A stretch of 64,000 nucleotides of DNA from Candidatus Dojkabacteria bacterium (GTDB lineage Bacteria > Patescibacteriota > Dojkabacteria > SC72). The stretch lies in NCBI GenBank assembly GCA_012842045.1, contig DUTP01000006.1, positions 10,979 to 74,978 of the forward strand, written 5' to 3'. The notes under the pieces were generated by a model. The model did not search any database, was not told the origin of the DNA, and was given only the letters and a program-made list of their open reading frames with translations. Shown here in pieces: positions 903-25,584 of the stretch. Position numbers and translations under genes: made by a program. The first letter of the stretch is position 1; each line of letters opens with the position of its first letter.

Positions 903-1451
903 TTAGTAAAGTTTATCCTCTCTCGGGTATATTTTATCAATTTCTGACTCATATGTCTTGATTGTTCCCCAGATAGAGAAGACAGCTAGTACTCCAGCTA
1001 GAATACCAATCCATTGGTATGTCATACCTTGTATTGTTTGTGCAACAACAATCAAGCATGCAACGACTAGAAATGAACCCCAAATGAATATCTTTAAGAA
1101 TGAAGTATCATCCTTTGTAATCCATTTAAGAATATTAAAGTTGGTAATCTTAACAATAGTTTTAGGGTTCTGTAGACTAGATTGATAAACAGATGTTTTA
1201 ATAATGAAATACAGTGTTGGTATTGCAAGACATATCACCATGAAAAGATTGGAGTAGGAGTTTACCAAGAGTGTGGTTGAAGGGTTTGTATAGTAGAGTT
1301 GAATAGAGAATATACCTCTAATCTGATTGTCTATGAAAAAATCGAGGTGATAAACCACGTTAGCAATTATTATTCCGAGTAATTTCCCAGCTATCATTAA
1401 TATAGCTGGAGTAACAGAAATTTTAAGAATCCTTCTTAACAGTTTTGACAT
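903..1451 (-). CDS. Hypothetical polytopic membrane protein
   Basis: 182 aa with 4-5 hydrophobic helices. It overlaps the rpsT 3' end by about 29 nt, so the true start may be an internal Met. Confidence 0.4.
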   Translation of the reverse strand: MSKLLRRILKISVTPAILMIAGKLLGIIIANVVYHLDFFIDNQIRGIFSIQLYYTNPSTTLLVNSYSNLFMVICLAIPTLYFIIKTSVYQSSLQNPKTIVKITNFNILKWITKDDTSFLKIFIWGSFLVVACLIVVAQTIQGMTYQWIGILAGVLAVFSIWGTIKTYESEIDKIYPREDKLY

Positions 1452-1719
1452 CTACTTGGGCAAGTTTGTTTAAATTTTTTGTAAGTCTGGATTTTATTCT
1501 ATCAGCCTTACCTTTTTTTATAACATTCTTTTTAGATGCTTTATCAAGAACTTTGTAGACATGCTTTATATTCTTTTTCCCTTCTTCTAGACTTCCTTCT
1601 TGAACTAAAGTGTTTTGCTTTTTTGTTGCCTTTTTAATTCTATTTCGAAGCCTGTCATTAATCTCTGTTCTTCGTCTAGTTGCTCTTAGATCTTTTTTAG
1701 ATGCTTTTAAATTTGGCAT
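1423..1719 (-). CDS. rpsT: 30S ribosomal protein S20
   Basis: 98 aa, MPNLKASKKDLRATRRR...NKLA. The basic, ANIKSAKKR-like N-terminus and KLA C-terminus are characteristic of S20. Confidence 0.85.
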   Translation of the reverse strand: MPNLKASKKDLRATRRRTEINDRLRNRIKKATKKQNTLVQEGSLEEGKKNIKHVYKVLDKASKKNVIKKGKADRIKSRLTKNLNKLAQVDVKTVKKDS

Positions 1720-1789
1720 TTTATTTGTAAGTATTATTTATTAATCAAGGTATTATATACATTCTTCTGCTATTTGTAAACATTAGTTT

Positions 1790-2245
1790 TTGTGTTATCC
1801 TTTTATTATGGAAAGGAGTAGGAAAGTAAAGATTTTAATGAGTGTATTTTTTATGTTTTTTCTCTTAGGTTTTGCAATTGTTTATTTATATCTAAATAGG
1901 AGTACAGAGGAGGTGTTGGGTGTGAAGGAGGATGTTAGAGAAGAGGTTATTGAGATAAATGGAGTGCCTAAGATTGTTTCTTTACCTCCTATGTTTGCTG
2001 TTGCAGGAGAACTTTATGAGTACTTTCCTAAGGTAATGGATAGTGATACGGATATCAACAGTCTGACATTGGAACTTGTATCTGCTCCAGAGTGGCTTAG
2101 TTTAGGGTTAAATAATGTTGTGAGTGGATATGTCCCAGTAGATGCTGTAGGTTATACCGTGAATTTTGTACTAAGAGTTTCTGATGGGTATAATTCATCT
2201 GATCAGGATAATTATATTTTGATAGTTGATGCAAATGAAATTTAA
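1790..2245 (+). CDS. Small membrane-anchored protein with a putative Ig-like (He_PIG/cadherin-like) domain
   Basis: N-terminal TM (VFFMFFLLGFAIVYLYL). The segment APEWLSLGLNNVVSGYVPVDAVGYTVNFVLRVSDGYNSSDQDNYILIV resembles the 'putative Ig' surface-domain consensus. The start may instead be the internal Met at about 1808. Confidence 0.45.
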   Translation: MCYPFIMERSRKVKILMSVFFMFFLLGFAIVYLYLNRSTEEVLGVKEDVREEVIEINGVPKIVSLPPMFAVAGELYEYFPKVMDSDTDINSLTLELVSAPEWLSLGLNNVVSGYVPVDAVGYTVNFVLRVSDGYNSSDQDNYILIVDANEI

Positions 2246-2642
2246 AATTTTTGGAATGTTTTTAGGTATTGCTTTAGTTATTGTTTCTATTTCAACCTTT
2301 TTATTTTTTAAGAGTAATGTTAGAAGTTATGATTCTCTTTTTGCAAAACAAGAGGGTTGTACGCCATATAATTTGTTTGTAGAAAAGGGAGATGATGATT
2401 TTTCCGTGAGAATTAGGTGGATGACGAAAGAGAAATGTGTAGGGTTTGTTCAATACGGTTTAGATAGAGATGATTTAAATAGAATAGGATTGGATGTGGA
2501 AAACATTACAAAAGCTATCGAACATGAGGTTGTGCTCAAGAAACTTTTAGCTAAAGAAAGATATTTCTTTATTATCAATTCTGATAACAAAGGTTATGCT
2601 CGAGAGGGTGCTCCATTAGAGTTTCTTTTAGAGGATCTTTAA
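2226..2642 (+). CDS. Small membrane-anchored protein with a purple-acid-phosphatase-N / FN3-like domain
   Basis: N-terminal TM. FSVRIRWMTKEKCVGFVQYG...HEVVLKKLLAKERYFFIINS matches the (R)W-T..-V-YG...H-V-L-L-P-T-Y-Y pattern of the Pur_ac_phosph_N/FN3 fold. It is paralogous to the two domains in the 43900-45915 protein. Confidence 0.45.
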   Translation: MMQMKFKIFGMFLGIALVIVSISTFLFFKSNVRSYDSLFAKQEGCTPYNLFVEKGDDDFSVRIRWMTKEKCVGFVQYGLDRDDLNRIGLDVENITKAIEHEVVLKKLLAKERYFFIINSDNKGYAREGAPLEFLLEDL

Positions 2643-4411
2643 TCTACTTTTTTATCACTTTTTTTAACAATAATTTCTTCAAAGTACTTCTTTGGTTTGA
2701 AAATCTTCCATACACCCATCTCAGCACCCTTATAAGCTTCTGATTCTACGAGTTTTTTGATGAAGATTTGTCCAAATGGCTTTGTATAAATATACCAGCC
2801 AAGGAATAAAATGAGTATACCTAAAGTTACTTGTACGATAACATTATCTAAAATACCTGCCTCTGGTGTTGCGGCTGCCTTATCTTTATCACTAGGTGCG
2901 CAGGACTGTACGACATTGATAGTAGAGGAAGCTCTTAAAGTATTTGGTGATACAGGAACTTGTTCTGGCTCTATTACAACTTCATTCGTATTCTCTCCAG
3001 TCAGGGCATTTTCTCCAGCAATCGCTTTAAATGTTAGAACCATTTGTTCTGAAGACTTTATATTCCATCCCCCTTGTACTTTCCATGCTAATTCTTCCGT
3101 GTCTCCTATTTTATTTGTCTGAATGTAGTTATCATCTGTTATTTCAATATCATTGATTTTTGTTGAGTTCTCTAAATAGAGGAAACCCAAAGGTAATTTG
3201 TTTTTAATAGATAGTATTTTTTGAGGAAGAGATGCATTATTCTTTATTGCAATAATGAACGACACTGTATTATTTGGTTGAACTCTGTCAATACACTCGG
3301 CTTCGCTGCTTATTGTTATGGCAAAGTTAGATTCGACATCTTCGTCTGATGGTTTATCAGGTTGTTCTGGAGGTAATTCAGTCTCTTTCTTTGTAAAAGT
3401 TACATTTGTAGATGCTTTCCCGAGGGAATTTTCTCCATCTAAAACTTCTGCACTGACTTTTAATTCTCCGAAATATGTATCAAATTGAGAGAAACTTAAA
3501 TTCTCTGTGTAGTTTTCATTATTGTAAAGTTCTTGTTCGAGTATTGATATATTCCCTTTGTCTTTATCTACCACAAAGCCTTTATTCATTGATAATTTGG
3601 AGAATGTGTCTCCTCCAAAGGAGAAAATTATACTTGTATTTTCACCCTCTTCTATGTTGGCAATTCTTATGGTAGCTTTTGATATCTTAGTTGTATCATC
3701 TTCTTCTATTCGTTTTTCTATTAAAAGACTTGTTACATCAGAAGAACCACTCTGTGCAACAGTGAGTAATCTTTTACAGAGTATAGAGTTAATCTTCTCT
3801 CCAGTTTCATCTTCTGCTATTGCTACTATGTCCAATGCTGGAGTTGTAAAATTAGAGAAGGTTTTTTCTATGGTGATTCCGTCTTCTGATACTGTATCTG
3901 GTTCAGCAGAAATATTGTTTAACAGGAATGTTGCGTTTTTATATGCTTTGTCAAATTTAGCGATAACTTTGATTTTATCGCTAGAGTCTATGTTTCCTGT
4001 CACAATTTTACCGGTTTCATCCGTTATTATCATCTCTGTACATCTTGTATCTTGTAATGACTGGATTGAACAGCTCAAGAAATCTTCTTGTTTTGTCGCA
4101 CTTTTAAGTTCTGTTATAGGAAGGGCACTTACTTGACATGCACTGATACAAGATTGGGTGCCCGACACTGTACTTGTTTTGAACATAAATCCTTTTCTAG
4201 GGTCACCACATTCGGGAACAACTGTAGGGTCTATGTAATAACAAGCACATTCTCTTTTTATTTCAGTTTTGACCTCTTGAGAAGGTTTTATTGCATAGAA
4301 ATATACAGCAGCTATTATTAATGCTAAACCTAAAACTCCAGCAATAATAAGAAGTGTTCTGATTAATTTGTTGGACTTTTTTGTTGTGGTAACTCTTTTA
4401 ACCTCTTCCAC
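2639..4411 (-). CDS. Large surface protein of unknown function, Cys-rich near the N-terminus, with N- and C-terminal TM segments
   Basis: 590-aa ORF. N-terminal TM (LLIIAGVLGLALIIAAVYFY), Cys-rich stretch, long Ser/Thr/Glu-rich region, C-terminal hydrophobic segment (LGILILFLGWYIY) followed by a Lys-rich tail. Confidence 0.5.
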   Translation of the reverse strand: MEEVKRVTTTKKSNKLIRTLLIIAGVLGLALIIAAVYFYAIKPSQEVKTEIKRECACYYIDPTVVPECGDPRKGFMFKTSTVSGTQSCISACQVSALPITELKSATKQEDFLSCSIQSLQDTRCTEMIITDETGKIVTGNIDSSDKIKVIAKFDKAYKNATFLLNNISAEPDTVSEDGITIEKTFSNFTTPALDIVAIAEDETGEKINSILCKRLLTVAQSGSSDVTSLLIEKRIEEDDTTKISKATIRIANIEEGENTSIIFSFGGDTFSKLSMNKGFVVDKDKGNISILEQELYNNENYTENLSFSQFDTYFGELKVSAEVLDGENSLGKASTNVTFTKKETELPPEQPDKPSDEDVESNFAITISSEAECIDRVQPNNTVSFIIAIKNNASLPQKILSIKNKLPLGFLYLENSTKINDIEITDDNYIQTNKIGDTEELAWKVQGGWNIKSSEQMVLTFKAIAGENALTGENTNEVVIEPEQVPVSPNTLRASSTINVVQSCAPSDKDKAAATPEAGILDNVIVQVTLGILILFLGWYIYTKPFGQIFIKKLVESEAYKGAEMGVWKIFKPKKYFEEIIVKKSDKKVD

Positions 4412-4498
4412 TACTTATGTGCCTTAAGTAAAATTTATAGATATCTACTTAATAGAGTTTATGTTAAGAACACTTAGGTGTCAATCTTTTATATGGTA

Positions 4499-5434
4499 CT
4501 AGAGTATTGAGGATAGTAGGGTTAATCCCAAATTAGGGTTTATTTGTCCTTTTTTAATTTGAAAATCTAGGTTTGATAGTTTGGTATATAAAGTTTTAAG
4601 TTTCTTTTTCGAATATTTTTTTGAAGAACTAATTAAAGATGGGACAGTGAAAGGGGGAACCTTTAAAGTTTTAGCAATGTTTCCAGATTCTTCTCTCTCC
4701 TCTAGGAGATATTTAGTTAAGGTGATTAGGCGTACATTTCTTGTAATCATAGAGATTATATAGTTTGCATCTACGGATTGGGAAATTAACCTTTCTAAGA
4801 TTTCTACACTGTATTTTGTGTCTCCTGTATTAATAGCGTCTATGAGATTCCAAATATCACTTTCTAAGGTGTTGGATACAAGTGAGAGAACATCTTGCCT
4901 AGTTATCGTATTGTCTTCAATTATTAATTTCATTTTTTCAATTTCATTACTACATCTCTCAGGGTCATAATTTGTTCTTTCGGCTAAAGCTCTTACGGCA
5001 TCTTTCTCGATGGTGATACCTTCCTCTTCTAATTCGTTTTTCATCCATGTTAAGAAAGTTCTTTTGTTTAGTTCTTTACTTTCTACAACCCTCTTTTCTT
5101 TATTAAAGAACTTGTAGTACTTAGTATTTGCTTTGATTTTTTGATCTTCCCAGAAGACTATTGTGTCTGATGAGGTGTTTGTTTCCAGAAGTAAGAAAAT
5201 TTCTTCAAGAAGTTTTTCTCTTTCTTTGTTTCTATATGTTCTTTTTAGTAGTAGTATCCTACTTGATGTAAAAAGAGTAGGGGATGCGAGTGTATCTATT
5301 AATACTTGGGCTGAAGTGTTCTCTGCATCAATGACAACAACTTCTGTTGTGTCATCCTTATTCTCTTTAATCTTTTGATTTACAGATTTAAGAGAAAGAT
5401 ATGTAGAATTACCATGATAGAGTATATATCTCAT
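4499..5434 (-). CDS. holA: DNA polymerase III delta subunit
   Basis: 311 aa. Overall length and pattern (LYHGN... ILLLKRTY, NEIEKMKLI, C-terminal helical domain) fit HolA. Sequence conservation in this family is weak. Confidence 0.55.
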   Translation of the reverse strand: MRYILYHGNSTYLSLKSVNQKIKENKDDTTEVVVIDAENTSAQVLIDTLASPTLFTSSRILLLKRTYRNKEREKLLEEIFLLLETNTSSDTIVFWEDQKIKANTKYYKFFNKEKRVVESKELNKRTFLTWMKNELEEEGITIEKDAVRALAERTNYDPERCSNEIEKMKLIIEDNTITRQDVLSLVSNTLESDIWNLIDAINTGDTKYSVEILERLISQSVDANYIISMITRNVRLITLTKYLLEEREESGNIAKTLKVPPFTVPSLISSSKKYSKKKLKTLYTKLSNLDFQIKKGQINPNLGLTLLSSIL

Positions 5435-5454
5435 TCTCTTACCTTAAGACTTAT

Positions 5455-6891
5455 TTAATTTCCCTCTGTTTCTGTCTTTTCTATCTCTTTGCCAAGAAGG
5501 ATTATGATTGCATCAGGATTTAGATTGTTTTTAACAAAATCAGGTTTCTCTTTGTTTTCTGTTTTAAGATATTGGGCAAAATCGTTAACACTTTCTTTGT
5601 ACTTATTATTATCAGAGTAAACATAATTACCTTCTTGATCTTTTAGTATGGATCTCGATTGTATGATATTTATATATGGATAGTGTTGTTTTATCTCCTT
5701 AACTTTTTCTGTAGTTTCTTTATAACCAATTCCAATGTCATAAACAAAGACTCTTGGATTATTTGAGTAAAGATAAGGTTTCTTCATAGCTAGTTGTATG
5801 TATTCATGTATTTTGTCATATTTTCCTAAGCCTTCTTTGGGACCAATCGCAAAGGCTCCTGATGGTACAAAGACTTTTTCTACCAGTTGTCCACCTCCTG
5901 CTAGTGGGTCTAATACAAAGGAGTATGACTTTCCATTTTCCTCATTAAACTTTTTTAGTAAGTCTAATCCTGCTTGTACGTCTGTTACTGTAAATTCTGA
6001 TATTTTAATATTGTTAACAATAGAAGAGAGCATGTCTATCAATATTTTAGGGTCATTAAGTGCATCGCTTTGAGATATTTTATTTTGTATAGCTATAATG
6101 ACCTTTTGTTGTCTTCTAGCTCTAGCATAGTCACTCCCTTCATTATTCTGCATAGAGTGTCTAGATCTTGCGTATTCTAAGGCTGTTTTTCCATCCATAA
6201 CTTGAGGTCCGGCTTGGAAACTTACTGTTTTATACTTCACACCACTTGGATATCTGTAATCAGTGAAGCTATTCTCTACATTGACATTTACACCACCTAG
6301 TGCATCTATAATTTCTTCAAATGCTTTAAAATCAACAAGAGCGTGATATTGTATTTCTAAACCTGTAACTTCTTTTACACTTCTCTTTAATCCTTCAAAA
6401 CCTCCTCCATCTTTCTGCTTTCTCTCCTCTCGTGCATATACAGAGTTGATTCTTTGAAAATGTCTTGTTTGTTTATCAACTTCTACATGGAAATCTCTTG
6501 GAATAGATATTAATTGCATATTGTTTGTTTCGTAGTTATAGGAAGCTACCATAATAGTATCCGTATTCGAGATATCATCTCCTTTTCTACTATCCACTCC
6601 AACTAAAAGCACACTTGTGTATTGCCCTTTAGAATCTTTTTCTAACTCAGGTGTTTTGTTAGAGATTAATGATGCTGCATTGAACTTAAAACCGACCTTT
6701 TCTGAAATGATATATCCCTTCCAAATGGCAAAACTAATTCCTCCTAAAAACAAAAAGAGTAAAAAGAAGATGAAGAACCTAAGAAAACCTTTTTTCTTTT
6801 TCCTAGGCTTATTTACAACAATCTCCTCTCTTGTTTTTTCAATAGGAGGTGTCTCTATATCTCCATTGTTTAAATCTATATCTAGAACCAT
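5455..6891 (-). CDS. LytR-CpsA-Psr (LCP) family cell-envelope polymer transferase
   Basis: N-terminal TM, then LLVGVDSRKGDDISNTDTIMVASYN...LISIPRDFHV, which is the canonical LCP core. Long C-terminal extension. Confidence 0.75.
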   Translation of the reverse strand: MVLDIDLNNGDIETPPIEKTREEIVVNKPRKKKKGFLRFFIFFLLFLFLGGISFAIWKGYIISEKVGFKFNAASLISNKTPELEKDSKGQYTSVLLVGVDSRKGDDISNTDTIMVASYNYETNNMQLISIPRDFHVEVDKQTRHFQRINSVYAREERKQKDGGGFEGLKRSVKEVTGLEIQYHALVDFKAFEEIIDALGGVNVNVENSFTDYRYPSGVKYKTVSFQAGPQVMDGKTALEYARSRHSMQNNEGSDYARARRQQKVIIAIQNKISQSDALNDPKILIDMLSSIVNNIKISEFTVTDVQAGLDLLKKFNEENGKSYSFVLDPLAGGGQLVEKVFVPSGAFAIGPKEGLGKYDKIHEYIQLAMKKPYLYSNNPRVFVYDIGIGYKETTEKVKEIKQHYPYINIIQSRSILKDQEGNYVYSDNNKYKESVNDFAQYLKTENKEKPDFVKNNLNPDAIIILLGKEIEKTETEGN

Positions 6892-17339: not shown

Positions 17340-18902
17340 ATGGCAAGAAGTGGTAAAAAAATACAACAGAAGAAAAAAACAAGGACGCCAATTGTTACAA
17401 TTCTTGGGCATGTTGATCATGGAAAGACCTCAATTCTTGATAAGATAAGAGAGGCAGATGTTCAAAGCTCAGAGGCTGGTGGAATAACTCAAAAGGTTTC
17501 AGTTTTTACTGTAAATATTCCTAAAACAGAACAAGAAATTACATTTGTAGATACTCCTGGTCATGAAGCTTTTGACTTAATGAGAACAAGAGGTGGAAGT
17601 ATTGCAGATATAGTTCTTTTAGTAGTTGCTGCAAATGATGGAGTTCAGCCACAAACTAAAGAATCGATAGATATAATTAAAGAATCTACAGCAAAACCAA
17701 TAGTTGTAATTAATAAGGTAGACTTACCTGATATAGACTTAGAAAAGGTTAAGCGAGAGGTTACCAATGCAGGTCTACAGTTAGAGGGTTTTGGAGGTAA
17801 TGTCCCAGTTATTGAAGTTTCAGCAAGAACAGGGAAAGGAATATTAGAACTTTTAGATTTAATACTCCTTGTTGCTGAAGTTGAAGGTTTAAGAGAAGAT
17901 ATTAAATTACCTAAAGGAGTTTTGGGTAAAGCTTTTGTTTTGGAATCAGTAAAGGATGAATTCAAAGGCAATGTTTCCTCAATTGTTTTAGTGCAGGGTA
18001 ACATCTGTGAAGGGAATTGGTTTGGATACAAGGTAAATGAAAAACTGTATATAGAAAAGATTAAAGGTTTAATCACAGAAGAAGACCAAAAACTTTGTAC
18101 TGTAGAATGTGGTTGTGGTGGTAAAGTAATAGGTCTTTCACACTTACTAGAACTAGGAACAACAGGATTTATTCTCTCTACTAACAACATTAAACTCTTA
18201 GAATCAGTAATTAAGACAAAAGAAGAAGAGGAAAAAGAAGAAACAACAGAAGAAACAGAGATGAATATAGAGGACTTTTTCTTTGGTTCTGATGTAGAGG
18301 AAGAAGGAGAGAAACTAAAAGTTATAGTTAAGAGTTCTTCAGAGGGTTCTTTAGAAGCTATTAAAAATACACTAAGTCAAATTGTAGAAGATGACTATTC
18401 TGTAGACATAGTTGATTCTGGTGTCGGTAATATTACTCTTAGAGATGTTGAATTCGCTGAACTATCTAAGGCGATAGTTCTTGGCTTTGAAGTACAGGTA
18501 GAACCTGGTGTTGCAGATTATGCGAAAAAGAAGAAAGTTTTAGTTAAAACATATGATGTTATCTATAGAATCTTTGAAGAGATAGAAGAAGCTCTAGCAG
18601 TTCTCTCTTTACCAGAAGAAACAGAGGAAGAGATAGGTAGTGCTAAAATTAAAGCGATATTCACTCTGTCTGATGGTAGCAAGGTATTAGGTAGTAAGGT
18701 AGAAAAGGGGATGATGAAGAGAGATTGTAAGGTATATATTGTTAGAGATGATGAGATTGTAGGAGAAAGTAAGATTAAAAGTCTAAGGATTAATAAAGAT
18801 CAGGTTAATGAAGTAAAAAATGGTTTTGAATGTGGCATCCAACTGTTTGAAGAAGTAGATGCAATAGAAGGTGATAGCATCTTCTGTTATAAAAAGGTTT
18901 AG
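17340..18902 (+). CDS. infB: Translation initiation factor IF-2, minimal form without the long N-terminal extension
   Basis: G-domain (ILGHVDHGKTSILD, DTPGHEAF, NKVD), domain II and the C-terminal fMet-tRNA-binding domain. 520 aa. Confidence 0.9.
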   Translation: MARSGKKIQQKKKTRTPIVTILGHVDHGKTSILDKIREADVQSSEAGGITQKVSVFTVNIPKTEQEITFVDTPGHEAFDLMRTRGGSIADIVLLVVAANDGVQPQTKESIDIIKESTAKPIVVINKVDLPDIDLEKVKREVTNAGLQLEGFGGNVPVIEVSARTGKGILELLDLILLVAEVEGLREDIKLPKGVLGKAFVLESVKDEFKGNVSSIVLVQGNICEGNWFGYKVNEKLYIEKIKGLITEEDQKLCTVECGCGGKVIGLSHLLELGTTGFILSTNNIKLLESVIKTKEEEEKEETTEETEMNIEDFFFGSDVEEEGEKLKVIVKSSSEGSLEAIKNTLSQIVEDDYSVDIVDSGVGNITLRDVEFAELSKAIVLGFEVQVEPGVADYAKKKKVLVKTYDVIYRIFEEIEEALAVLSLPEETEEEIGSAKIKAIFTLSDGSKVLGSKVEKGMMKRDCKVYIVRDDEIVGESKIKSLRINKDQVNEVKNGFECGIQLFEEVDAIEGDSIFCYKKV

Positions 18903-18968: not shown

Positions 18969-20393
18969 ATGCAACTTCAGTATCTTAAATTAGGTGACCA
19001 AGAAGTTTTTAATGGTCAATTTCTTTTAGCTGTATATAGAATTAGAGGAAAGGAAGGTATTCCCTTAGATGATATTGCAACAGAAGTCGCTGCAGAATCT
19101 TCAACTGGTTCGAATGTAAGAATTAAAGTAGCAACTCCATATTCTGAGAGTATGAATGCTAGGGTATATAGAATAGATGAAGCAAAAAATTTAGTTTGGA
19201 TAGCTTACCCTTGGAGAATTTTCGATAGAGGAGGTAATGTTCAGAATATAATTACTTTTCTTGCTGGTAATGTCTTTGGTATGTCTTCTTTAGAAGAGTG
19301 TAAGCTTCTAGATGTGTATTTCCCACCACAAATGTTAGTTCACTATGAAGGACCAAGTTATACAATCAAAGAGATGAAAGAATATCTTAATATTGATAAT
19401 AGGCCAGTATTAGGAACTATTATAAAACCAAAGATAGGTTTAACATCATCAGAATATGCAGAACTTTGTTATGACTTCTGGAGTGGTGGTGGTGATTTTG
19501 TCAAAAATGATGAACCTCAAGCAGATCAGGACTTCGCACCATTTGATTTTATGGTTAGAGATGTTAGATATGCTATGGATAGAGTTGAAAAGGAAACAGG
19601 TAAGACAAAAGTTCACTCCTTTAATATCTCTTCTGCGGATTATGACACTATGATAGAGAGGGCTGAACTTATAAGGTCTACAATGAAACCAGGGAGTTAT
19701 GCTTTCCTAATCGATGGTATAACTGCAGGTTGGATGGCTGTACAAACAATTAGGAGAAGGTATCCTGATGTATTCTTACACTTCCATAGAGCAGGTCATG
19801 GAGCTTTTACTAGAGAAGAAACACCTTTTGGCTTTACAGTCCCTGTGCTTACTAAATTTGCTAGGCTAGCTGGTGCTTCTGGTATCCATACTGGTACGGC
19901 TGCTGTCGGTAAAATGGCCGGTTCACCTAAAGAAGATATTATGGCTGCAAATCATGCTTTAAGACTTTTTTCTAAAGGAGACTTCTTTAATCAAATATGG
20001 GCAGAGATACCAGAAAAGGATGCTGATTTAGTAAAAGCAATAGAGATGGAAGAAAAAGGAGAAGACTATGAAGATCTTGGTTTGTGGAGAATTACCAAAA
20101 AGACTTGTCCAATAATCTCAGGAGGTCTTAATCCCACTCTAATTGGTGAATTTTTAGACATAATTGGAACTCGAGACTTCATTACAACAATGGGTGGAGG
20201 TGTGCATTCTCATCCAATGGGTACTAAATCAGGAGCAACAGCCGTATTACAAGCATACGAAGCATGGGAGAAGAAAATTCCTCTTGAAGAGTATGCAAAA
20301 GAGAAAGAAGAGTTAAGGGTAGCAATTGATTTCTTTGGGAAAAAGAAAGTGCATGCTCAAAACGAATCTGATGATGACAAGGATATTCACTAG
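18969..20393 (+). CDS. rbcL: Ribulose-1,5-bisphosphate carboxylase large subunit, form II/III (archaeal/CPR-type)
   Basis: Active-site motifs are present: IIKPKIGL (KPK), GGGDFVKNDE (carbamylated Lys), LHFHRAGHGAF, MGGGVHSHP. 474 aa, no small-subunit gene adjacent. Confidence 0.85.
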   Translation: MQLQYLKLGDQEVFNGQFLLAVYRIRGKEGIPLDDIATEVAAESSTGSNVRIKVATPYSESMNARVYRIDEAKNLVWIAYPWRIFDRGGNVQNIITFLAGNVFGMSSLEECKLLDVYFPPQMLVHYEGPSYTIKEMKEYLNIDNRPVLGTIIKPKIGLTSSEYAELCYDFWSGGGDFVKNDEPQADQDFAPFDFMVRDVRYAMDRVEKETGKTKVHSFNISSADYDTMIERAELIRSTMKPGSYAFLIDGITAGWMAVQTIRRRYPDVFLHFHRAGHGAFTREETPFGFTVPVLTKFARLAGASGIHTGTAAVGKMAGSPKEDIMAANHALRLFSKGDFFNQIWAEIPEKDADLVKAIEMEEKGEDYEDLGLWRITKKTCPIISGGLNPTLIGEFLDIIGTRDFITTMGGGVHSHPMGTKSGATAVLQAYEAWEKKIPLEEYAKEKEELRVAIDFFGKKKVHAQNESDDDKDIH

Positions 20394-20411: not shown

Positions 20412-20441
20412 TTGTATATTTCTACATCTTTGTGTTACAAT
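20412..20441 (+). promoter_or_regulatory. Putative groESL promoter (TTGTAT-18-TGTTACAAT, extended -10)
   Basis: cTTGTATatttctacatctttgTGtTACAATcg immediately upstream of the CIRCE-like element. Confidence 0.4.
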
Positions 20442-20443
20442 CG

Positions 20444-20470
20444 TTAGCAATCGTTAAATTTATCTGCTAA
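20444..20470 (+). promoter_or_regulatory. CIRCE-like operator (TTAGCAATC-N9-ATCTGCTAA) abutting the groES start
   Basis: TTAGCA-N15-TGCTAA is an exact core inverted repeat. The left arm matches 8 of 9 CIRCE positions. Confidence 0.55.
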
Positions 20471-20776
20471 ATGTATATGGCAAAAGATGTCAAAATCAGA
20501 CCATTAGGTCATAGAGTATTAGTTTCTCCAGATGCATTTGAGGAAACAACAAAAGGTGGTTTACTTTTACCTCCTTCATCAGCAGATGACCAGACCCCAG
20601 AAACAGGAGTAATTGTTAAGTTGGGAGAAGGGAAAGTTGATGGTAAAGAAGTAACATTCGATGTAAAAGTTGGAGACAGAGTATACTTTAAAAAATATTC
20701 ACCAGATAAGTTGGAAATAGATGGAGAGAAGTATCTTCTCTTAGATGCAGGTGATATTTTAGCAACTATTAAATAG
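20471..20776 (+). CDS. groES: Co-chaperonin GroES
   Basis: ...[13 protein letters not shown]...GGLLLP...GVIVKLGEG...VGDRVYF... The true start is probably the second ATG (about 20477, [10 protein letters not shown]), because the first ATG touches the CIRCE arm. Confidence 0.9.
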
Positions 20777-20811
20777 TTATTTTAGAATCTAAATTATTAT
20801 CTTTTACAAAT

Positions 20812-22440
20812 ATGGCAAAATCAATAATATATAACGAACAAGCTAGAAGAGCTTTAAAGGAAGGTGTTGACACTATTTCAGATGCAGTTAAAGTAACTCT
20901 TGGTCCTAAAGGGAGAAATATTGCAATAGCAAAATCATTTGGTTCTCAAGTTGTTACAAAAGACGGTGTTACAGTTGCAAAAGAGATAGAAGAGAAAGAT
21001 CCTTTTAAGAATGTTGGTGTGGAGATGATTAAAGAAGCATCCAGTAGAGTGAATGACTTAGCTGGAGATGGTACAACAACAGTAACAGTATTAGCACAGG
21101 CAATAGCAGGTGTTGGTTTTAAAAATGTTACTGCTGGAGCAAACCCTATTTCTCTTAAGAGGGGACTAGATAAAGCAACAGATGTTGTACTAGAAGAACT
21201 ATCAAAGAAGGCTAAAAAGATTTCAAGTAAGGAAGAAATAGCACAAGTTGCAACAATATCAACCAATAATGATTCAGATTTAGGTGAGATGATAGCAGGG
21301 GTGTTTGAGAAGGTAGGAAAAGATGGAGTTATCACAGTAGAAGAAGCTAAAGGTTTTAAAGATGAAGTTGAATATACTGAAGGTATGGAGTTTGATAATG
21401 GATATGTTAGTCCTTACTTTGTAAACAATGCAGAAACTCTAGAAGCTGTTATGGATAATCCTTACATCTTCATTACAGATAAGAAACTATCTAACTTACA
21501 AGATATTCAAGCTATTGCAGAAAAGGTATTAGGTGCTGCAGATAGACCTCTTGTTATTATTGCAGAAGAGATTGAAAATCAGGCATTAGCAACATTAGTA
21601 GTTAACAAGTTAAGAGGAACATTAGATGTTGTAGCAGTAAAAGCACCTGGTTTTGGAGATAGGAAGAAAGAGATGTTGAAGGACTTAGCAGTACTAACAG
21701 GAGCAGATTTTGTATCTGAGGAATTAGGTAAGACACTAGAGTCTGTTGATTTAATAGATTTAGGTTCTGCTAAGAAAGTCATTGTTACTAAAGAGAAAAC
21801 AATCATTGTAGAAGGTAAGGGTGAGAAAAAGAATTTAGAGGATAGAATTAAAGAGATAAAAGCTCAGATTGAGAATACTACATCTGAATATGACAAAGAA
21901 AAGTTACAAGAGAGATTAGCAAAACTTGCAGGTGGTGTTGCAGTTATCAAAGTAGGTGCAGCATCTGAAGTAGAAGCTAAGGAAAAGAAGATGAGAATAG
22001 AGGATGCTCTTAATGCAACTAGAGCTGCAATAGAAGAAGGTGTAGTAGCTGGTGGTGGTTTGGCTCTTCATAATGCGAAGAAGGTTTTGGATAAAGTTAA
22101 ATTGGAAGATGCAGAGGAGCAGTTAGGAGTAGAGATACTTAGATCTGTTCTCAGTGAACCTCTTAAGCAAATAGTTGAAAATGCTGGTGAGGATGGTGCT
22201 GTAATAGCTTCTAAATGTGAAGGTAGTACAGGATATAATGCAAAGACAGGTGAATTTGTAGATATGATTAAAGAAGGTATCATCGACCCAGTTAAAGTTA
22301 CAAGACTTGTTCTAACAAATGCAGTATCTGTTGCTTCAATGTTAATAACTACAGAAGCAGTAGTAGCAGACATCCCTGAAGAGAAAGGTCATAATCATGC
22401 AGAAGATATGAATGCAGGAGCTATTCCAGGAATGATGTAA
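20812..22440 (+). CDS. groL: Chaperonin GroEL
   Basis: [20 protein letters not shown]...[15 protein letters not shown]..., full-length 542 aa with a C-terminal Gly/Met tail. Confidence 0.95.
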
Positions 22441-22487: not shown

Positions 22488-23009
22488 TCAAACAAACCTA
22501 ACCTCTTGAGCTAACACTTTTCCTACAAGACCAATTGTATTACCTCTATGTACAACTATCTCTAAATTTCCATCAGTGTTTGTTAAGACTTTATCACCAC
22601 TCTTTATATCAGTCTTAGAAGATACAAAGATACATCCATGGCTTCCGTCTACAATACTCATATCAACTGCAAAAACATCCATATCAATATCTTTTACCCA
22701 ATCAGGTGCAGGATAGAATGTATATGTTTTTCCTTTTACAAAATCTCCATTTTCTGGAATTGATGTAAAGAGAGGTATTCTGTTAGAACTATATATAACC
22801 TCTTGCTGGTTATCTCTTAATAAATCAGTAGGATGAATATCTAGTACATCTGCTAACTTTGTAAGCTGATTCATAGGTGAACTTTTACCAGTCTCATATC
22901 TAGAAATCATTTCCCAAGTTTTGCCAATCTTGTCACCTAACTCCCTTTGGGTAAGGTCTTTTCTAACCCTATACATTCTAATGTTTTCTCCAATGTGTTT
23001 ATTTTTCAT
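22488..23009 (-). CDS. XRE-family HTH plus peptidase S24 (LexA/CI-like) self-cleaving repressor
   Basis: N-terminal HTH_XRE (IGENIRMYRVRKDLTQRELGDKIGKTWEMISRYETGKSSP). C-terminal S24-like domain with FAVDMSIV (Ser) and a downstream Lys (IKSGDKVL). The stop codon is TGA. Confidence 0.6.
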   Translation of the reverse strand: MKNKHIGENIRMYRVRKDLTQRELGDKIGKTWEMISRYETGKSSPMNQLTKLADVLDIHPTDLLRDNQQEVIYSSNRIPLFTSIPENGDFVKGKTYTFYPAPDWVKDIDMDVFAVDMSIVDGSHGCIFVSSKTDIKSGDKVLTNTDGNLEIVVHRGNTIGLVGKVLAQEVRFV

Positions 23010-23253
23010 ATATATAGATTTTAATTACATATATAAATTGTTGGAATAGAGGGTTGTTTCTCAAATATGAAATATTGTTTCGCATTGTAATCGTTCTGTA
23101 AGAAATTAGTGATATTCTCTAAATATGGAAAATGACAAAATAAAAGAAAAAATATTTTTAATACAGAAGTATTTTAAAATTATGAAAGAGTCTTCTCTTA
23201 CTAATCAGTGGGAGTTATACAGAGTTGCACACAAAGCAATGTTAGAAGAAAGT

Positions 23254-23730
23254 TTAAAGTTGCAAAAACTTCTTTCTAAGAACAATCTTTAACCAATTAT
23301 CTTTCAACCACTGCTCTGACTTTTGTTGCTCATCTAGTAAACCTCTCAAAGCAAGCTCTTTATTCACAATATTACCTTGATGAGGCTTATCAAACTTTTT
23401 TGTTAGTGGAGATTGAAATCCATGAGCATAGTGGCATAGTTCATGTGCGATTGTTGCTCTTAGTACAAACTCAGGAATAACATCATGTTGAAAAAATCTA
23501 GTAAGTGTTATTACTGTAATACTCTTATCATCCTGTACTTCATACTCATCCATCTTATTCTTCAATAAACTCTTTATCTTCGTTCTCTTATTTGCTAGTT
23601 TAATACTTCCTAACTGTCTTGTTGAATATTTTCCAAACTTAATTAAAACAAGATTCTTTCTGGGTATATCTGGAAAATGGTTCTCCCAAAGATCGTACAA
23701 TATATTTTCTAAAAATTCTTCATCTCTCAT
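23254..23730 (-). CDS. Putative zinc metallopeptidase, ImmA/IrrE (M78)-like or SprT-like
   Basis: Single HExxH motif in the context RATIAHELCHYAHGF, which resembles the M78 consensus (..laHElgHlllh). 158 aa, no TM. Confidence 0.45.
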   Translation of the reverse strand: MRDEEFLENILYDLWENHFPDIPRKNLVLIKFGKYSTRQLGSIKLANKRTKIKSLLKNKMDEYEVQDDKSITVITLTRFFQHDVIPEFVLRATIAHELCHYAHGFQSPLTKKFDKPHQGNIVNKELALRGLLDEQQKSEQWLKDNWLKIVLRKKFLQL

Positions 23731-23748: not shown

Positions 23749-25584
23749 ATGCTATTATATCTTATAATGGATACGAAAAAAGGAAAGCAATTTAAGACAT
23801 TACTAAAAGTTCTCAAATTTATTTATGGCAACTATACTGTACTTGCAGTCTCTAGAGATTTTCTCTTTCTCTTTAGTACAGCCGCCGAAATCTATGGAAT
23901 CTCTGTATTAGGTAAATTCATAGATGCCACTACTAAGATACTTTTAGAATGGAACTCTTTTGATTTTAAGAGTTTCCTTACAAGTGATTCTTTTAAATAT
24001 CTCTTTTTAATATTTATCCTTTGGGCTGTCACTCATATATGTAATCAAATAAGAGGGTATCTCTATGTTGTGATATATGAAAAAACTTGGAGTACTACTC
24101 AATCAATGATAATTGGCAAAGTTGCAAACTCTAATCTTCAGGATGTTGAGAAAAAGGATTTTCAAGATAAAGTGGCTTTTGCTCCTGCATATTCGATTGA
24201 AAGGATAATAGATGTTTATGACAACTTCTCTGTGTTAATAAGTAATACCGTTAGGTTAATATCTGCTTTTGTATTGATAACTCAAAGTGTTGGTGTCTCT
24301 GCCCTGCTTCTTGCTCTTTTTGTATTGCCTGAAGCTTTTTTCATTCATGGTGAGAGAAGGGATATAAAGGAGTTTAGAGACAATTCTATTGGAAAACTAA
24401 GGTTTCTTGCATATGTACAAGATCTTGCTTTAACAATTTCAAACTTTTTGGAATTAAGAGTAAATAATATATTTTCTTTTCTTAAGAGAAGATACGATGA
24501 GGAGTATGACGAATATCTAAATAAGTATTTCATTGGACAATACAGTTTTTTCAAAAGCAGAGCTGGTTTAGGTGTTTTTAGTCAATTTTTGAAATATATC
24601 TATGTAGTATATGTACTAGCAATTTCTGTTCTTAAAAAATATTCCTTTGGTCAGTTTAAAGCACTTTTTGATTATGTAGATGTAGCATTTAATAGTACAT
24701 CCAAAATTACTGACTCTGTATCAATAATCATTATCAATCTCGAATACATTGATGAGTTTTTTGATTTGATAGAGTATGAAGGTTTTGGAGATAGGTATCA
24801 GGGTAAGATTAAACTAGGGAAAAACACGCCACTACTTGAGTTTAAGAACTTAAATTTTGCATATCCAGATGACCCTTCTGTTACAGTTCTGAAAAATATA
24901 AGCATGAAAGTAGAACCGGGAGAGAAAATTGCAATCTTAGGTTCTGATGGCTCTGGTAAGAGTACTTTGGTGAAAATTCTTACAGGCTTGTATGGTGTAG
25001 TTGATGGGGGATATTTCTTGGATGGGAATAGTACAAGAGAATTGGCAAGAGGGGAATTGAAAAAAAAGATAGCAGTAGTACTTCAAGAATTCATAGATTA
25101 TCACTTTAGTTTGAAAGAAAATATTGTAATTTCAGGACAGAGGAAAAATGTTGATAATGCTTTGTATGCGAATGTTTCTAAAATTGCTCAGGTCGACAGA
25201 TTCAAGAAGAGTGTTGGTTTAGATGATGCCTCTTTGTTAGGTAAAACTTTTGCCTCTGGAAAGGAACTCTCTCCTGGTTATTGGCAAAGATTGGCTATTA
25301 GTAGGATGCTTTACAGAAACAGACAATTATTCATTATGGATGAACCTTTTACATATATAGATGATGTCTCTGCAGAGAGAATATTAGATGGTATATTAAA
25401 ATTCTTAGGAGAGGAGAGGTCGCTAATATATATTACAAGAAGTATCAGGATGTTGAAGAAGTTTGATAGGATATATTATCTGCATAAGGGTAGTATTGTT
25501 GAATCTGGTAGTTGGGAAGAATTAATAAAAAAGAAAGGTAAGTTGTACAAAGAGTTTTTGTTACAAGATGAATCTATAGAATAA
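23749..25584 (+). CDS. ABC transporter, fused permease/ATP-binding protein (exporter type)
   Basis: N-terminal multi-TM domain. Walker A (LGSDGSGKST), signature-like (LSPGYWQRLAISR), Walker B (LFIMDEPFTYID). Confidence 0.8.
   Translation: MLLYLIMDTKKGKQFKTLLKVLKFIYGNYTVLAVSRDFLFLFSTAAEIYGISVLGKFIDATTKILLEWNSFDFKSFLTSDSFKYLFLIFILWAVTHICNQIRGYLYVVIYEKTWSTTQSMIIGKVANSNLQDVEKKDFQDKVAFAPAYSIERIIDVYDNFSVLISNTVRLISAFVLITQSVGVSALLLALFVLPEAFFIHGERRDIKEFRDNSIGKLRFLAYVQDLALTISNFLELRVNNIFSFLKRRYDEEYDEYLNKYFIGQYSFFKSRAGLGVFSQFLKYIYVVYVLAISVLKKYSFGQFKALFDYVDVAFNSTSKITDSVSIIIINLEYIDEFFDLIEYEGFGDRYQGKIKLGKNTPLLEFKNLNFAYPDDPSVTVLKNISMKVEPGEKIAILGSDGSGKSTLVKILTGLYGVVDGGYFLDGNSTRELARGELKKKIAVVLQEFIDYHFSLKENIVISGQRKNVDNALYANVSKIAQVDRFKKSVGLDDASLLGKTFASGKELSPGYWQRLAISRMLYRNRQLFIMDEPFTYIDDVSAERILDGILKFLGEERSLIYITRSIRMLKKFDRIYYLHKGSIVESGSWEELIKKKGKLYKEFLLQDESIE

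Follow-up and report, generated by a model that had tools for sequence, protein, structure and literature searches.

In the PRM/PR region of phage lambda a small gene lies divergent to a repressor gene with a leaderless start, and other prophages have non-cleavable repressors whose inactivation falls to small antirepressors (Gifsy GfoR/GfhR, 186 Tum, P22 Ant). Chromosomal regulators with a CI-type helix-turn-helix (HTH) and an S24 domain are described as the 'non-canonical LexA' of Bacteroidetes, which retains its peptidase (PMC8565304). In a further class, a COG2856/M78 metalloprotease is paired with an XRE repressor, as in ImmA/ImmR of ICEBs1, IrrE/DdrO of Deinococcus and Rir/Crh of phage TP-J34; the identity between ImmA and IrrE is below 15% (PMC6868357). 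The locus considered here lies in a 64-kb stretch of contig DUTP01000006.1 from a Candidatus Dojkabacteria bacterium (the whole stretch, 64,000 nucleotides long, is called the window) and combines a CI-type XRE repressor gene, a divergent small gene and a gene for a single-HExxH protein that resembles the SprT family. The Dojkabacteria (WS6, Patescibacteria/Candidate Phyla Radiation (CPR)) have genomes of ~0.7–1.1 Mb, and to our knowledge gene regulation in the CPR is almost wholly uncharted.

The reading that we favour, with a probability of about 45%, is that of two neighbouring units rather than one proven machine: a chromosomal CI/Cro-like autoregulated switch whose repressor has lost the catalytic dyad of S24 peptidases, beside a SprT-like protease that is probably independent of it. 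What appears to be new is that a CI-type repressor without the dyad is combined with an unknown small protein, encoded divergently, and with a SprT-like zincin that lacks a zinc ribbon, inherited vertically across a CPR phylum. The kinds of system to which it is related, namely chromosomal CI-type HTH plus S24 regulators, COG2856/XRE pairs and prophage repressors neutralised by antirepressors, are already known.

The repressor and its divergent small gene

The features of the locus, in positions of the window, are as follows.

22488–23009, minus strand: CI-type XRE repressor, open reading frame (ORF) of 173 residues
23010–23124: divergent control region between the ATG of the repressor and the ATG of the small ORF, 115 bp
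23125–23292, plus strand: small ORF of 55 residues
23254–23730, minus strand: SprT-like minimal zincin, ORF of 158 residues
23731–23748: 18-bp gap from which the SprT-like gene and the ABC exporter start divergently, with a GAGGA Shine-Dalgarno-like element for the SprT-like gene
23749–25584, plus strand: ABC exporter, divergent from the SprT-like gene (PF00005, E 1e-25)
20471–22440, plus strand: groES/groEL, convergent with the repressor gene and on its downstream side

The repressor and HExxH reading frames have the positions given in the first-pass annotation, which also located the module correctly between the groESL operon and an ABC exporter. The closest genome record, JAGPFQ010000001.1, shows 97% protein identity to the window proteins.

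The XRE-type HTH proposed for the repressor is confirmed by a match of residues 10–63 to PF01381 (HTH_3) with E 9e-10 and a score of 38.8 bits, the cutoff being 23, and PDB sequences give many HTH matches. The same segment also scores on the antitoxin models MqsA, HipB and PezA. The protein consists of the HTH (residues ~4–64), a variable linker of low model confidence (65–76) and an S24-like β-domain (77–173); the linker is probably exposed, since it is variable and has a low predicted local distance difference test score (pLDDT). The 85 homologues are found exclusively in Dojkabacteria/Patescibacteria, and conservation was read from an alignment of 31 diverse ones (A1). All 31 match PF01381, and the recognition region carries the invariant sequence TWEMISRYE. 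In the C-terminal half P79, Y99, P102 and G125 are the sole invariant residues, with W104, F113, A167 and E169 nearly so.

In the AlphaFold2 (AF2) model of the repressor (pLDDT 89) a helical HTH and a seven-stranded β-domain are joined by a linker that is disordered at residues 69–74. Foldseek matches it end to end with lambda CI (3bdn, E 1.5e-5) and also with a lambda-186 hybrid repressor, and with T. maritima LexA (3k2z) at a TMq of 0.45; the highest-ranking are proteins of phages, called 'Repressor protein CI', or LexA-type autopeptidases, with E values of 4e-10 to 1e-6 over at least 200 columns. HppE, which joins an XRE domain to a cupin, matches the model too (E 2e-4), so the assignment of a CI/LexA fold rests on the ranking of the matches and on the hhalign register. 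In hhalign the C-terminal domain aligns weakly with the S24 core of LexA (P 0.03), lambda CI (P 5e-4) and UmuD (P 6e-3). The LexA and UmuD alignments fall in a common register, and that of lambda CI also places the repressor strand 'GKVLA' on 'VVGKVIA' of CI.

The first-pass annotation had called this domain a self-cleaving S24 autopeptidase of the LexA/CI type, and of this the fold stands but the peptidase does not. PF00717 matches 0/31 homologues even at E ≤ 10 and is absent from the precomputed Pfam annotation of all 85. In residues 75–173 the 31-sequence alignment has neither a Ser nor a Lys that is invariant or close to it, and the equivalent of the cleavage strand has no conserved Ala-Gly. 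The stretch that matches the LexA cleavage strand 'PLVGRVAAGEP' is IPLFTSIPENGDF, with PEDG, PKNF, PNGF and PKD- as variants in the family, and LexA S119 and K156 stand opposite variable columns that contain neither of these two residues as a conserved feature, the window repressor having D/G and V there. Judged by its sequence, the repressor is a CI-type protein with an S24-derived domain from which scissile bond, nucleophile and base have disappeared. Since none of the three (Ala-Gly, Ser and Lys) remains, it is predicted not to cleave itself, and RecA-stimulated autocleavage is therefore not expected. The S24-fold domain most plausibly serves dimerisation.

In its succession of XRE HTH, flexible linker and S24-fold β-domain the repressor is built like lambda CI, other phage CI proteins and the 'non-canonical LexA' of Bacteroidetes, and it shares with the last a chromosomal rather than a prophage location. 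Unlike these proteins it lacks the Ala-Gly, Ser and Lys residues, and its domain goes undetected by PF00717.

The spacer between the repressor and SprT-like genes (23010–23253, 244 bp) had been described as the probable promoter and operator of the repressor, with a 55-residue ORF at 23126–23293. The size is correct and conserved blocks are present, but there is more to the spacer than promoter and operator. It contains a small divergent gene that is conserved, and whose coordinates had been given one base off. In the window clade the small ORF is open in 26/26 loci, with 35–67 codons, and its ATG lies at a fixed distance of 116–121 bp from the repressor ATG, always divergently. Given a stop frequency of 0.077 per codon, reading frames free of stops would arise by chance with a probability of ~10^-44 if the loci are independent. 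The peptides are ~10–25% identical and have in common a two-helix pattern rich in Lys and Glu (alignment A4). The ORF is also present in L025, L052, L090 and L092, in L025 without the repressor and in L092 with the repressor and without the protease; the distance between the two ATG codons is 149–167 bp in L090 and L092, and the peptides of L052, L090 and L092 share the motif SPxxY(I/L)xxLLDxLY(E/D). A tblastn search matched the near-identical genome only, which had made the ORF look spurious; the positional ORF analysis overturned this. We regard the 55-residue ORF as a real conserved small gene on the strength of its conserved position and reading frame. It is followed on the same strand by a Bro-N gene in L015 and L038 (PF02498; phrog_15286, E 5e-123) and by a gene with a LigD_Prim-Pol domain in L052 (PF21686, E 3e-12).

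Upstream of the repressor, on the minus strand, a conserved box TCTATTC (23044–23050) is followed after 20 nucleotides by a −10-like element TAAAAT (23018–23023), which lies 8 nucleotides before the repressor ATG. The family-wide form is a TTCTAT(T/A)C box, 20 nucleotides and a TA(A/C/G)AAT element 8–9 nucleotides from the ATG, and both elements are kept in all clades examined, including the clade with the 55-bp spacer and deep-branching loci. Column conservation across 21 loci marks further blocks, ATGTAA and CTTACA-N6/7-TTAC. Because the −10-like element sits only 8–9 nucleotides from the ATG, this arrangement suggests a repressor mRNA that is leaderless or has a very short leader. An extended −10 upstream of groES, TGTTACAAT, supports the reading of the element as a −10, and any assignment of control-region bases to operator or promoter is putative. 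The SprT-like gene has the GAGGA Shine-Dalgarno-like element, and the repressor gene and small ORF have none. The divergent small gene and the leaderless-looking repressor start both recall lambda PRM/PR; unlike lambda Cro, however, the small protein has no Cro-like HTH by any search.

The recurring palindromic operator that was to be looked for did not emerge from the 64-kb window. The composite box pattern has no exact second copy there, its two occurrences with at most one mismatch compare with 1.7 expected and are not an enrichment, and a regulon search with a position weight matrix of the upstream box and two consensus patterns gave no sites beyond chance.

The region 20431–20470 contains TGTTACAAT and then a CIRCE-like inverted repeat, TTAGCAATC-N9-ATCTGCTAA, of the HrcA operator type, which ends at the groES start codon. 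In L052, L090 and L094 the HSP20 genes adjacent to the module likewise have CIRCE-like elements in front of them. With such elements of their own, groES and the neighbouring HSP20 genes are not obvious targets of the repressor, and groESL was set aside as a candidate target.

The 3′ ends of the small ORF and the SprT-like gene overlap by 39 nucleotides on opposite strands. A 14-nucleotide inverted repeat (23242–23279, 86% complementary, 10-nucleotide loop) lies across the SprT-like gene's stop codon and the small ORF's 3′ end. It is probably not a terminator, with −9 kcal/mol, a z of −1.05 against shuffled controls and no site in a terminator scan. As the SprT-like gene and the ABC exporter begin only 18 bp apart, the promoters of both must lie inside neighbouring coding sequence.

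The HExxH protein and its family

The 158-residue protein has a single zinc-binding HExxH motif in the context LRATIAHELCHYAHGF, as the first-pass annotation noted. HELCH occupies residues 96–100 (nucleotides 23431–23445), and the probable third zinc ligand is H117 (23380–23382). The homologues form 542 clusters with ~70% identity, all labelled 'hypothetical' and without a precomputed Pfam domain, and the MRD start is conserved in all of them. The mean column identity is 79%, against 48% for the repressor. In an exhaustive profile search of 1.84 billion representatives the family proved to be small, with 166 relatives/clusters at 50% identity, and confined to CPR-type metagenome bins.

The motif had been taken as the signature of an M78 protease of the ImmA/IrrE type, an assignment that fails. 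PF06114 (M78) gives no match to the protein at E ≤ 1, and among NCBIfam and PHROG models none is matched, those for ImmA/IrrE in NCBIfam included. The sole Pfam signal is SprT-like PF10263, with E 0.027 and 14.8 bits, below the cutoff of 25.6. When 60 diverse relatives, forming an extended family, were scanned against Pfam individually, the SprT-like model was matched by 29 (best E 6e-7), YgjP-like by 3, WLM by 2 and M78 by 2 (best E 9e-4). The family profile aligns in hhalign with the SprT-like protein of B. subtilis (YdcK) over 72 collinear columns, from the N-terminal helix through HELCHY (probability 67%, P 5e-5), and more weakly with E. coli SprT (P 9e-4); both references were verified to contain PF10263 and the zinc ribbon PF17283.

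Residues P86, H96, E97, H100 and W141 are invariant across the extended family, and near-invariance extends to Y101, G104, S107, P116, H117, E125 and R129. At least 90% of the 60 members keep P116-H117, and 'PHxG' 17 residues after HExxH fits the SprT pattern, which in E. coli SprT is APHG. The zinc site of IrrE-type proteases is His-His-Glu, with the Glu as third ligand on the helix that follows HExxH. In the window family the nearly invariant E125 stands 25 residues after H100 in helix 119–128, and P116-H117, likewise nearly invariant, lies in a loop, where it would provide the third ligand as in SprT.

The AF2 model (pLDDT 89) is zincin-like. A first helix is followed by a sheet of three strands, by the active-site helix and by two more helices, of which the long C-terminal one (residues 132–156) ends the protein in place of a zinc ribbon. 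PF17283 has no match in the protein, and the sequence has no Cys cluster. Foldseek against the PDB gave a best E of 0.19, with scattered weak matches to metalloproteases such as ZMPSTE24 and snake venom metzincins, and profile searches of two protease alignments against PDB sequences gave noise only. From its motif pattern and family relationships, the window protein is best classed as a divergent SprT-like minimal zincin without a ribbon, not detectably M78. It shares the N-terminal helix, three-stranded sheet, HExxH helix and downstream His with E. coli SprT, B. subtilis YdcK and SPRTN/Wss1, the last being eukaryotic proteases of DNA-protein crosslinks, and it differs from bacterial SprT in having the long C-terminal helix instead of the zinc ribbon.

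In common with the COG2856/XRE pairs, the locus has a single-HExxH zincin that adjoins an XRE repressor in need of a trans-acting inactivator, and some of the linked genes hint at DNA damage. The window protease, in contrast to theirs, is SprT-like and not detectably M78, and the repressor has an S24-fold β-domain where DdrO and ImmR have a helical C-terminal domain. Conservation of the window protease also far exceeds that of the repressor, without which the protease is often found, and cleavage is hypothetical here.

A distant relative of the protease (E 2e-36 to the family profile) is encoded in L081, at 938–6075, where its gene overlaps the stop codon of a gene for a 972-residue UvrD-helicase/PDDEXK nuclease. 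Lactamase_B and RmuC genes follow, and the whole looks like a DNA repair or recombination operon.

Gene neighbourhoods and competing explanations

Eighty species-level genome loci were fetched by way of the protease, of which 70, from Dojkabacteria, are informative. The repressor is missing in 23/70, and the protease there keeps its motif at ~70% identity. In some of these loci (e.g. L003, L004, L012) the protease abuts groEL; in others it is followed by a DUF4932-like, RNHCP or radical SAM gene or by one for an unknown protein of 209 residues. L092 and L093 have the repressor with no protease nearby. Seven relatives of the protease from outside the phylum were looked up; the contig of L087 is too short to show neighbours, and an XRE neighbour occurs in 0/6 of the readable contexts, which are varied. 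The pair is conserved but facultative.

The flanks differ between clades, with a divergent ABC neighbour in loci of the window type and HSP20 in a deeper clade. In the arrangement found with the more distant repressors (L090/L091, L094, L096), an HSP20 gene points away from the protease and repressor genes, which run in the same direction, and RNHCP and NYN genes converge on them. The protease ORF was confirmed with the family hidden Markov model in L090, L091 and L094; L096 has only a 158-residue ORF without Pfam match in the same position.

The interval between protease and groEL is a variable slot in the syntenic block glyA-folD-ABC / SprT-like ... groEL-groES. As surveyed in L003, L004, L012, L025, L029, L031, L037 and L042, it may hold the repressor and small ORF, the small ORF and RNHCP, a DUF4932-like HExxH protein of 324–331 residues, a radical SAM protein, the 209-residue protein or nothing. 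The RNHCP zinc-ribbon gene (PF12647) recurs near the repressor, usually convergent and often with an NYN-domain gene, and in L025 it occupies the repressor's position.

L090, 4610–4942: RNHCP gene
L092, 5014–5340: RNHCP gene
L094, 5608–5919: RNHCP gene
L095, 1936–2262: RNHCP gene
L096, 3694–4005: RNHCP gene
L052, 10310–10675: RNHCP gene
L025, 8682–8987: RNHCP gene

Two deep-branching loci (L071 8443–9216 and L072 8449–9201, minus strand) encode a different XRE-HTH protein of 250–257 residues with an unrelated C-terminal region, and its gene converges on the SprT-like gene, whose 3′ end it overlaps. Just upstream of groES in the window lies an ORF of 474 residues (18969–20393) that reads by eye, from its translation, as RuBisCO large-subunit-like (form III-like), and the adjoining ORF of 520 residues (17340–18902) reads in the same way as a short IF2-type GTPase-like protein.

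A number of observations weigh against the two-unit reading. The repressor gene lies directly downstream of the protease gene on the same strand in 47/70 informative loci, a frequent co-occurrence of the kind that the first-pass annotation had proposed to look for. The adjacency extends to repressors that have diverged down to 31% identity, and the spacer, ~200–300 bp in the window clade, tightens to 55–56 bp in a second clade. The pair has outlived the exchange of both flanks (ABC/groEL against HSP20/RNHCP-NYN), and adjacency that survives a change of flanks is taken in the gene-neighbourhood method as a sign of functional coupling. No clear repeated dyad operator could be resolved in the control region, and the small ORF, which is matched by nothing in Pfam, NCBIfam or PHROG, has neither an HTH nor another recognisable fold. 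A repressor that has lost autoproteolysis also requires some inactivator, and by analogy with the COG2856/XRE pairs (PMC6868357) the adjacent zincin would be the obvious candidate.

Adjacency at such divergence and spacing, kept in at least two unrelated flanking contexts, would be explained by a switch like ImmA-ImmR or IrrE-DdrO, in which the SprT-like protease cleaves or sequesters the repressor under stress and de-represses the small ORF and its cargo. Such a switch would supply the trans-acting inactivator required by a repressor without self-cleavage apparatus, the variable linker of low pLDDT is probably exposed, and the LigD Prim-Pol cargo and the UvrD/RmuC context of one relative point to DNA damage; known COG2856/XRE pairs act in this manner (PMC6868357). 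It is the main alternative, though somewhat unlikely. The protease is highly conserved in the 23 loci without repressor, no XRE gene adjoins those of its relatives outside the phylum, in L092 the repressor and small ORF are found without it, and the repressor has what appears to be its own conserved promoter. The protease has no M78 signature and, unlike ImmA/IrrE, evolves much more slowly than its supposed substrate. In its boldest form, which is unlikely, the locus would be a damage or stress switch, analogous to SOS, that converged on IrrE/DdrO and ImmA/ImmR with other components: a SprT-like protease, SPRTN/Wss1-like in action and possibly activated by DNA, would cleave the DNA-bound repressor with its decayed S24 autoprotease and so release a small effector gene and, in some genomes, repair cargo such as the LigD primase-polymerase.

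The repressor and small ORF may instead be a toxin-antitoxin-like or addiction module that occupies the variable slot and has no connection with the protease or DNA damage, an idea to which we give little credence. The scores of the HTH on MqsA, HipB and PezA, the variability of the slot between protease and groEL, the fast evolution of the small ORF and the phage-type Bro-N gene linked to it in two loci speak for the module. That the pair would consist of an XRE antitoxin or regulator and a small helical toxin or toxin regulator is no more probable, for the genes are divergent and not co-transcribed as in type II toxin-antitoxin operons, the repressor has a CI-type oligomerisation domain instead of a toxin-binding tail, and no toxin family is recognised by Pfam, NCBIfam or PHROG. 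The module is moreover syntenic and vertically inherited throughout the phylum rather than patchy.

The circuit of the first-pass annotation, a hybrid of SOS response and immunity in which an M78 ImmA/IrrE protease accompanies an actively self-cleaving S24 repressor, is extremely improbable. The aHELcH context of the motif, the matches of 2/60 family members to PF06114 at E ~1e-3 and the CI/LexA-like fold of the repressor's C-terminal domain are what can be said for it. On the other side stand the lack of a PF06114 match in the window protein, the dominance of PF10263 in the family (29/60, against 2 for M78), the collinear hhalign alignment with a bona fide SprT-like protein, the 0/31 matches to PF00717 and the unconserved Ala-Gly, Ser and Lys positions. 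A repressor without cleavage site, nucleophile and base does not undergo autoproteolysis, so a hybrid of autoproteolysis and trans-proteolysis does not exist. As signs against its own proposal the first-pass annotation had named an alignment of the protease with SprT together with a pair not conserved elsewhere; the alignment with SprT was found, and the pair proved to be conserved.

We return to the two-unit reading. Its first unit would consist of the CI-type XRE repressor and the divergent small gene, facing each other across the 115-bp control region of fixed length. The repressor would contact this region with its HTH, dimerise through the dead S24-fold domain and most likely repress both its own leaderless-looking promoter and that of the small ORF, which in some genomes would also drive Bro-N or LigD primase-polymerase genes. 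Relief of repression would come from a trans-acting factor, which is needed because the repressor has no self-cleavage apparatus. In this respect the unit would resemble the prophage systems of Gifsy, 186 and P22, in which a non-cleaved CI-like repressor is neutralised by another protein, and in L015 and L038 it has a linked Bro-N gene, of antirepressor type. The unit differs from those systems in being vertically inherited and chromosomal in a tiny CPR genome, with no LexA-controlled antirepressor identified, and in having the small ORF under what would be the repressor's own divergent promoter. The second unit would be the phylum-wide SprT-like minimal zinc protease, which keeps its catalytic motif with or without an adjacent repressor and most likely serves a separate housekeeping function in proteolysis, of the DNA-repair type. 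Its independence is suggested because it is more conserved than the repressor, persists without it and has relatives without an XRE partner. The operon of one relative with UvrD/PDDEXK and RmuC genes suggests, by analogy, a role in DNA repair.

These results correct two annotations made from motifs, 'ImmA/IrrE' and 'self-cleaving S24', which automated reading or reading by eye would spread. If the coupling of protease and repressor is true, the SprT-like proteins would be a third protease family that inactivates repressors under stress, in addition to S24 autocleavage stimulated by RecA and trans-cleavage by M78, here in the CPR, and this would be the first anti-repressor of the SprT family. 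The repressor would then be a self-cleaving protein that has turned dependent on a protease acting in trans. Even without coupling, the locus defines three uncharacterised families found throughout the phylum, namely SprT-like zincins that lack the ribbon, CI-type repressors whose S24-fold domain is catalytically dead, and small proteins encoded divergently from these repressors.

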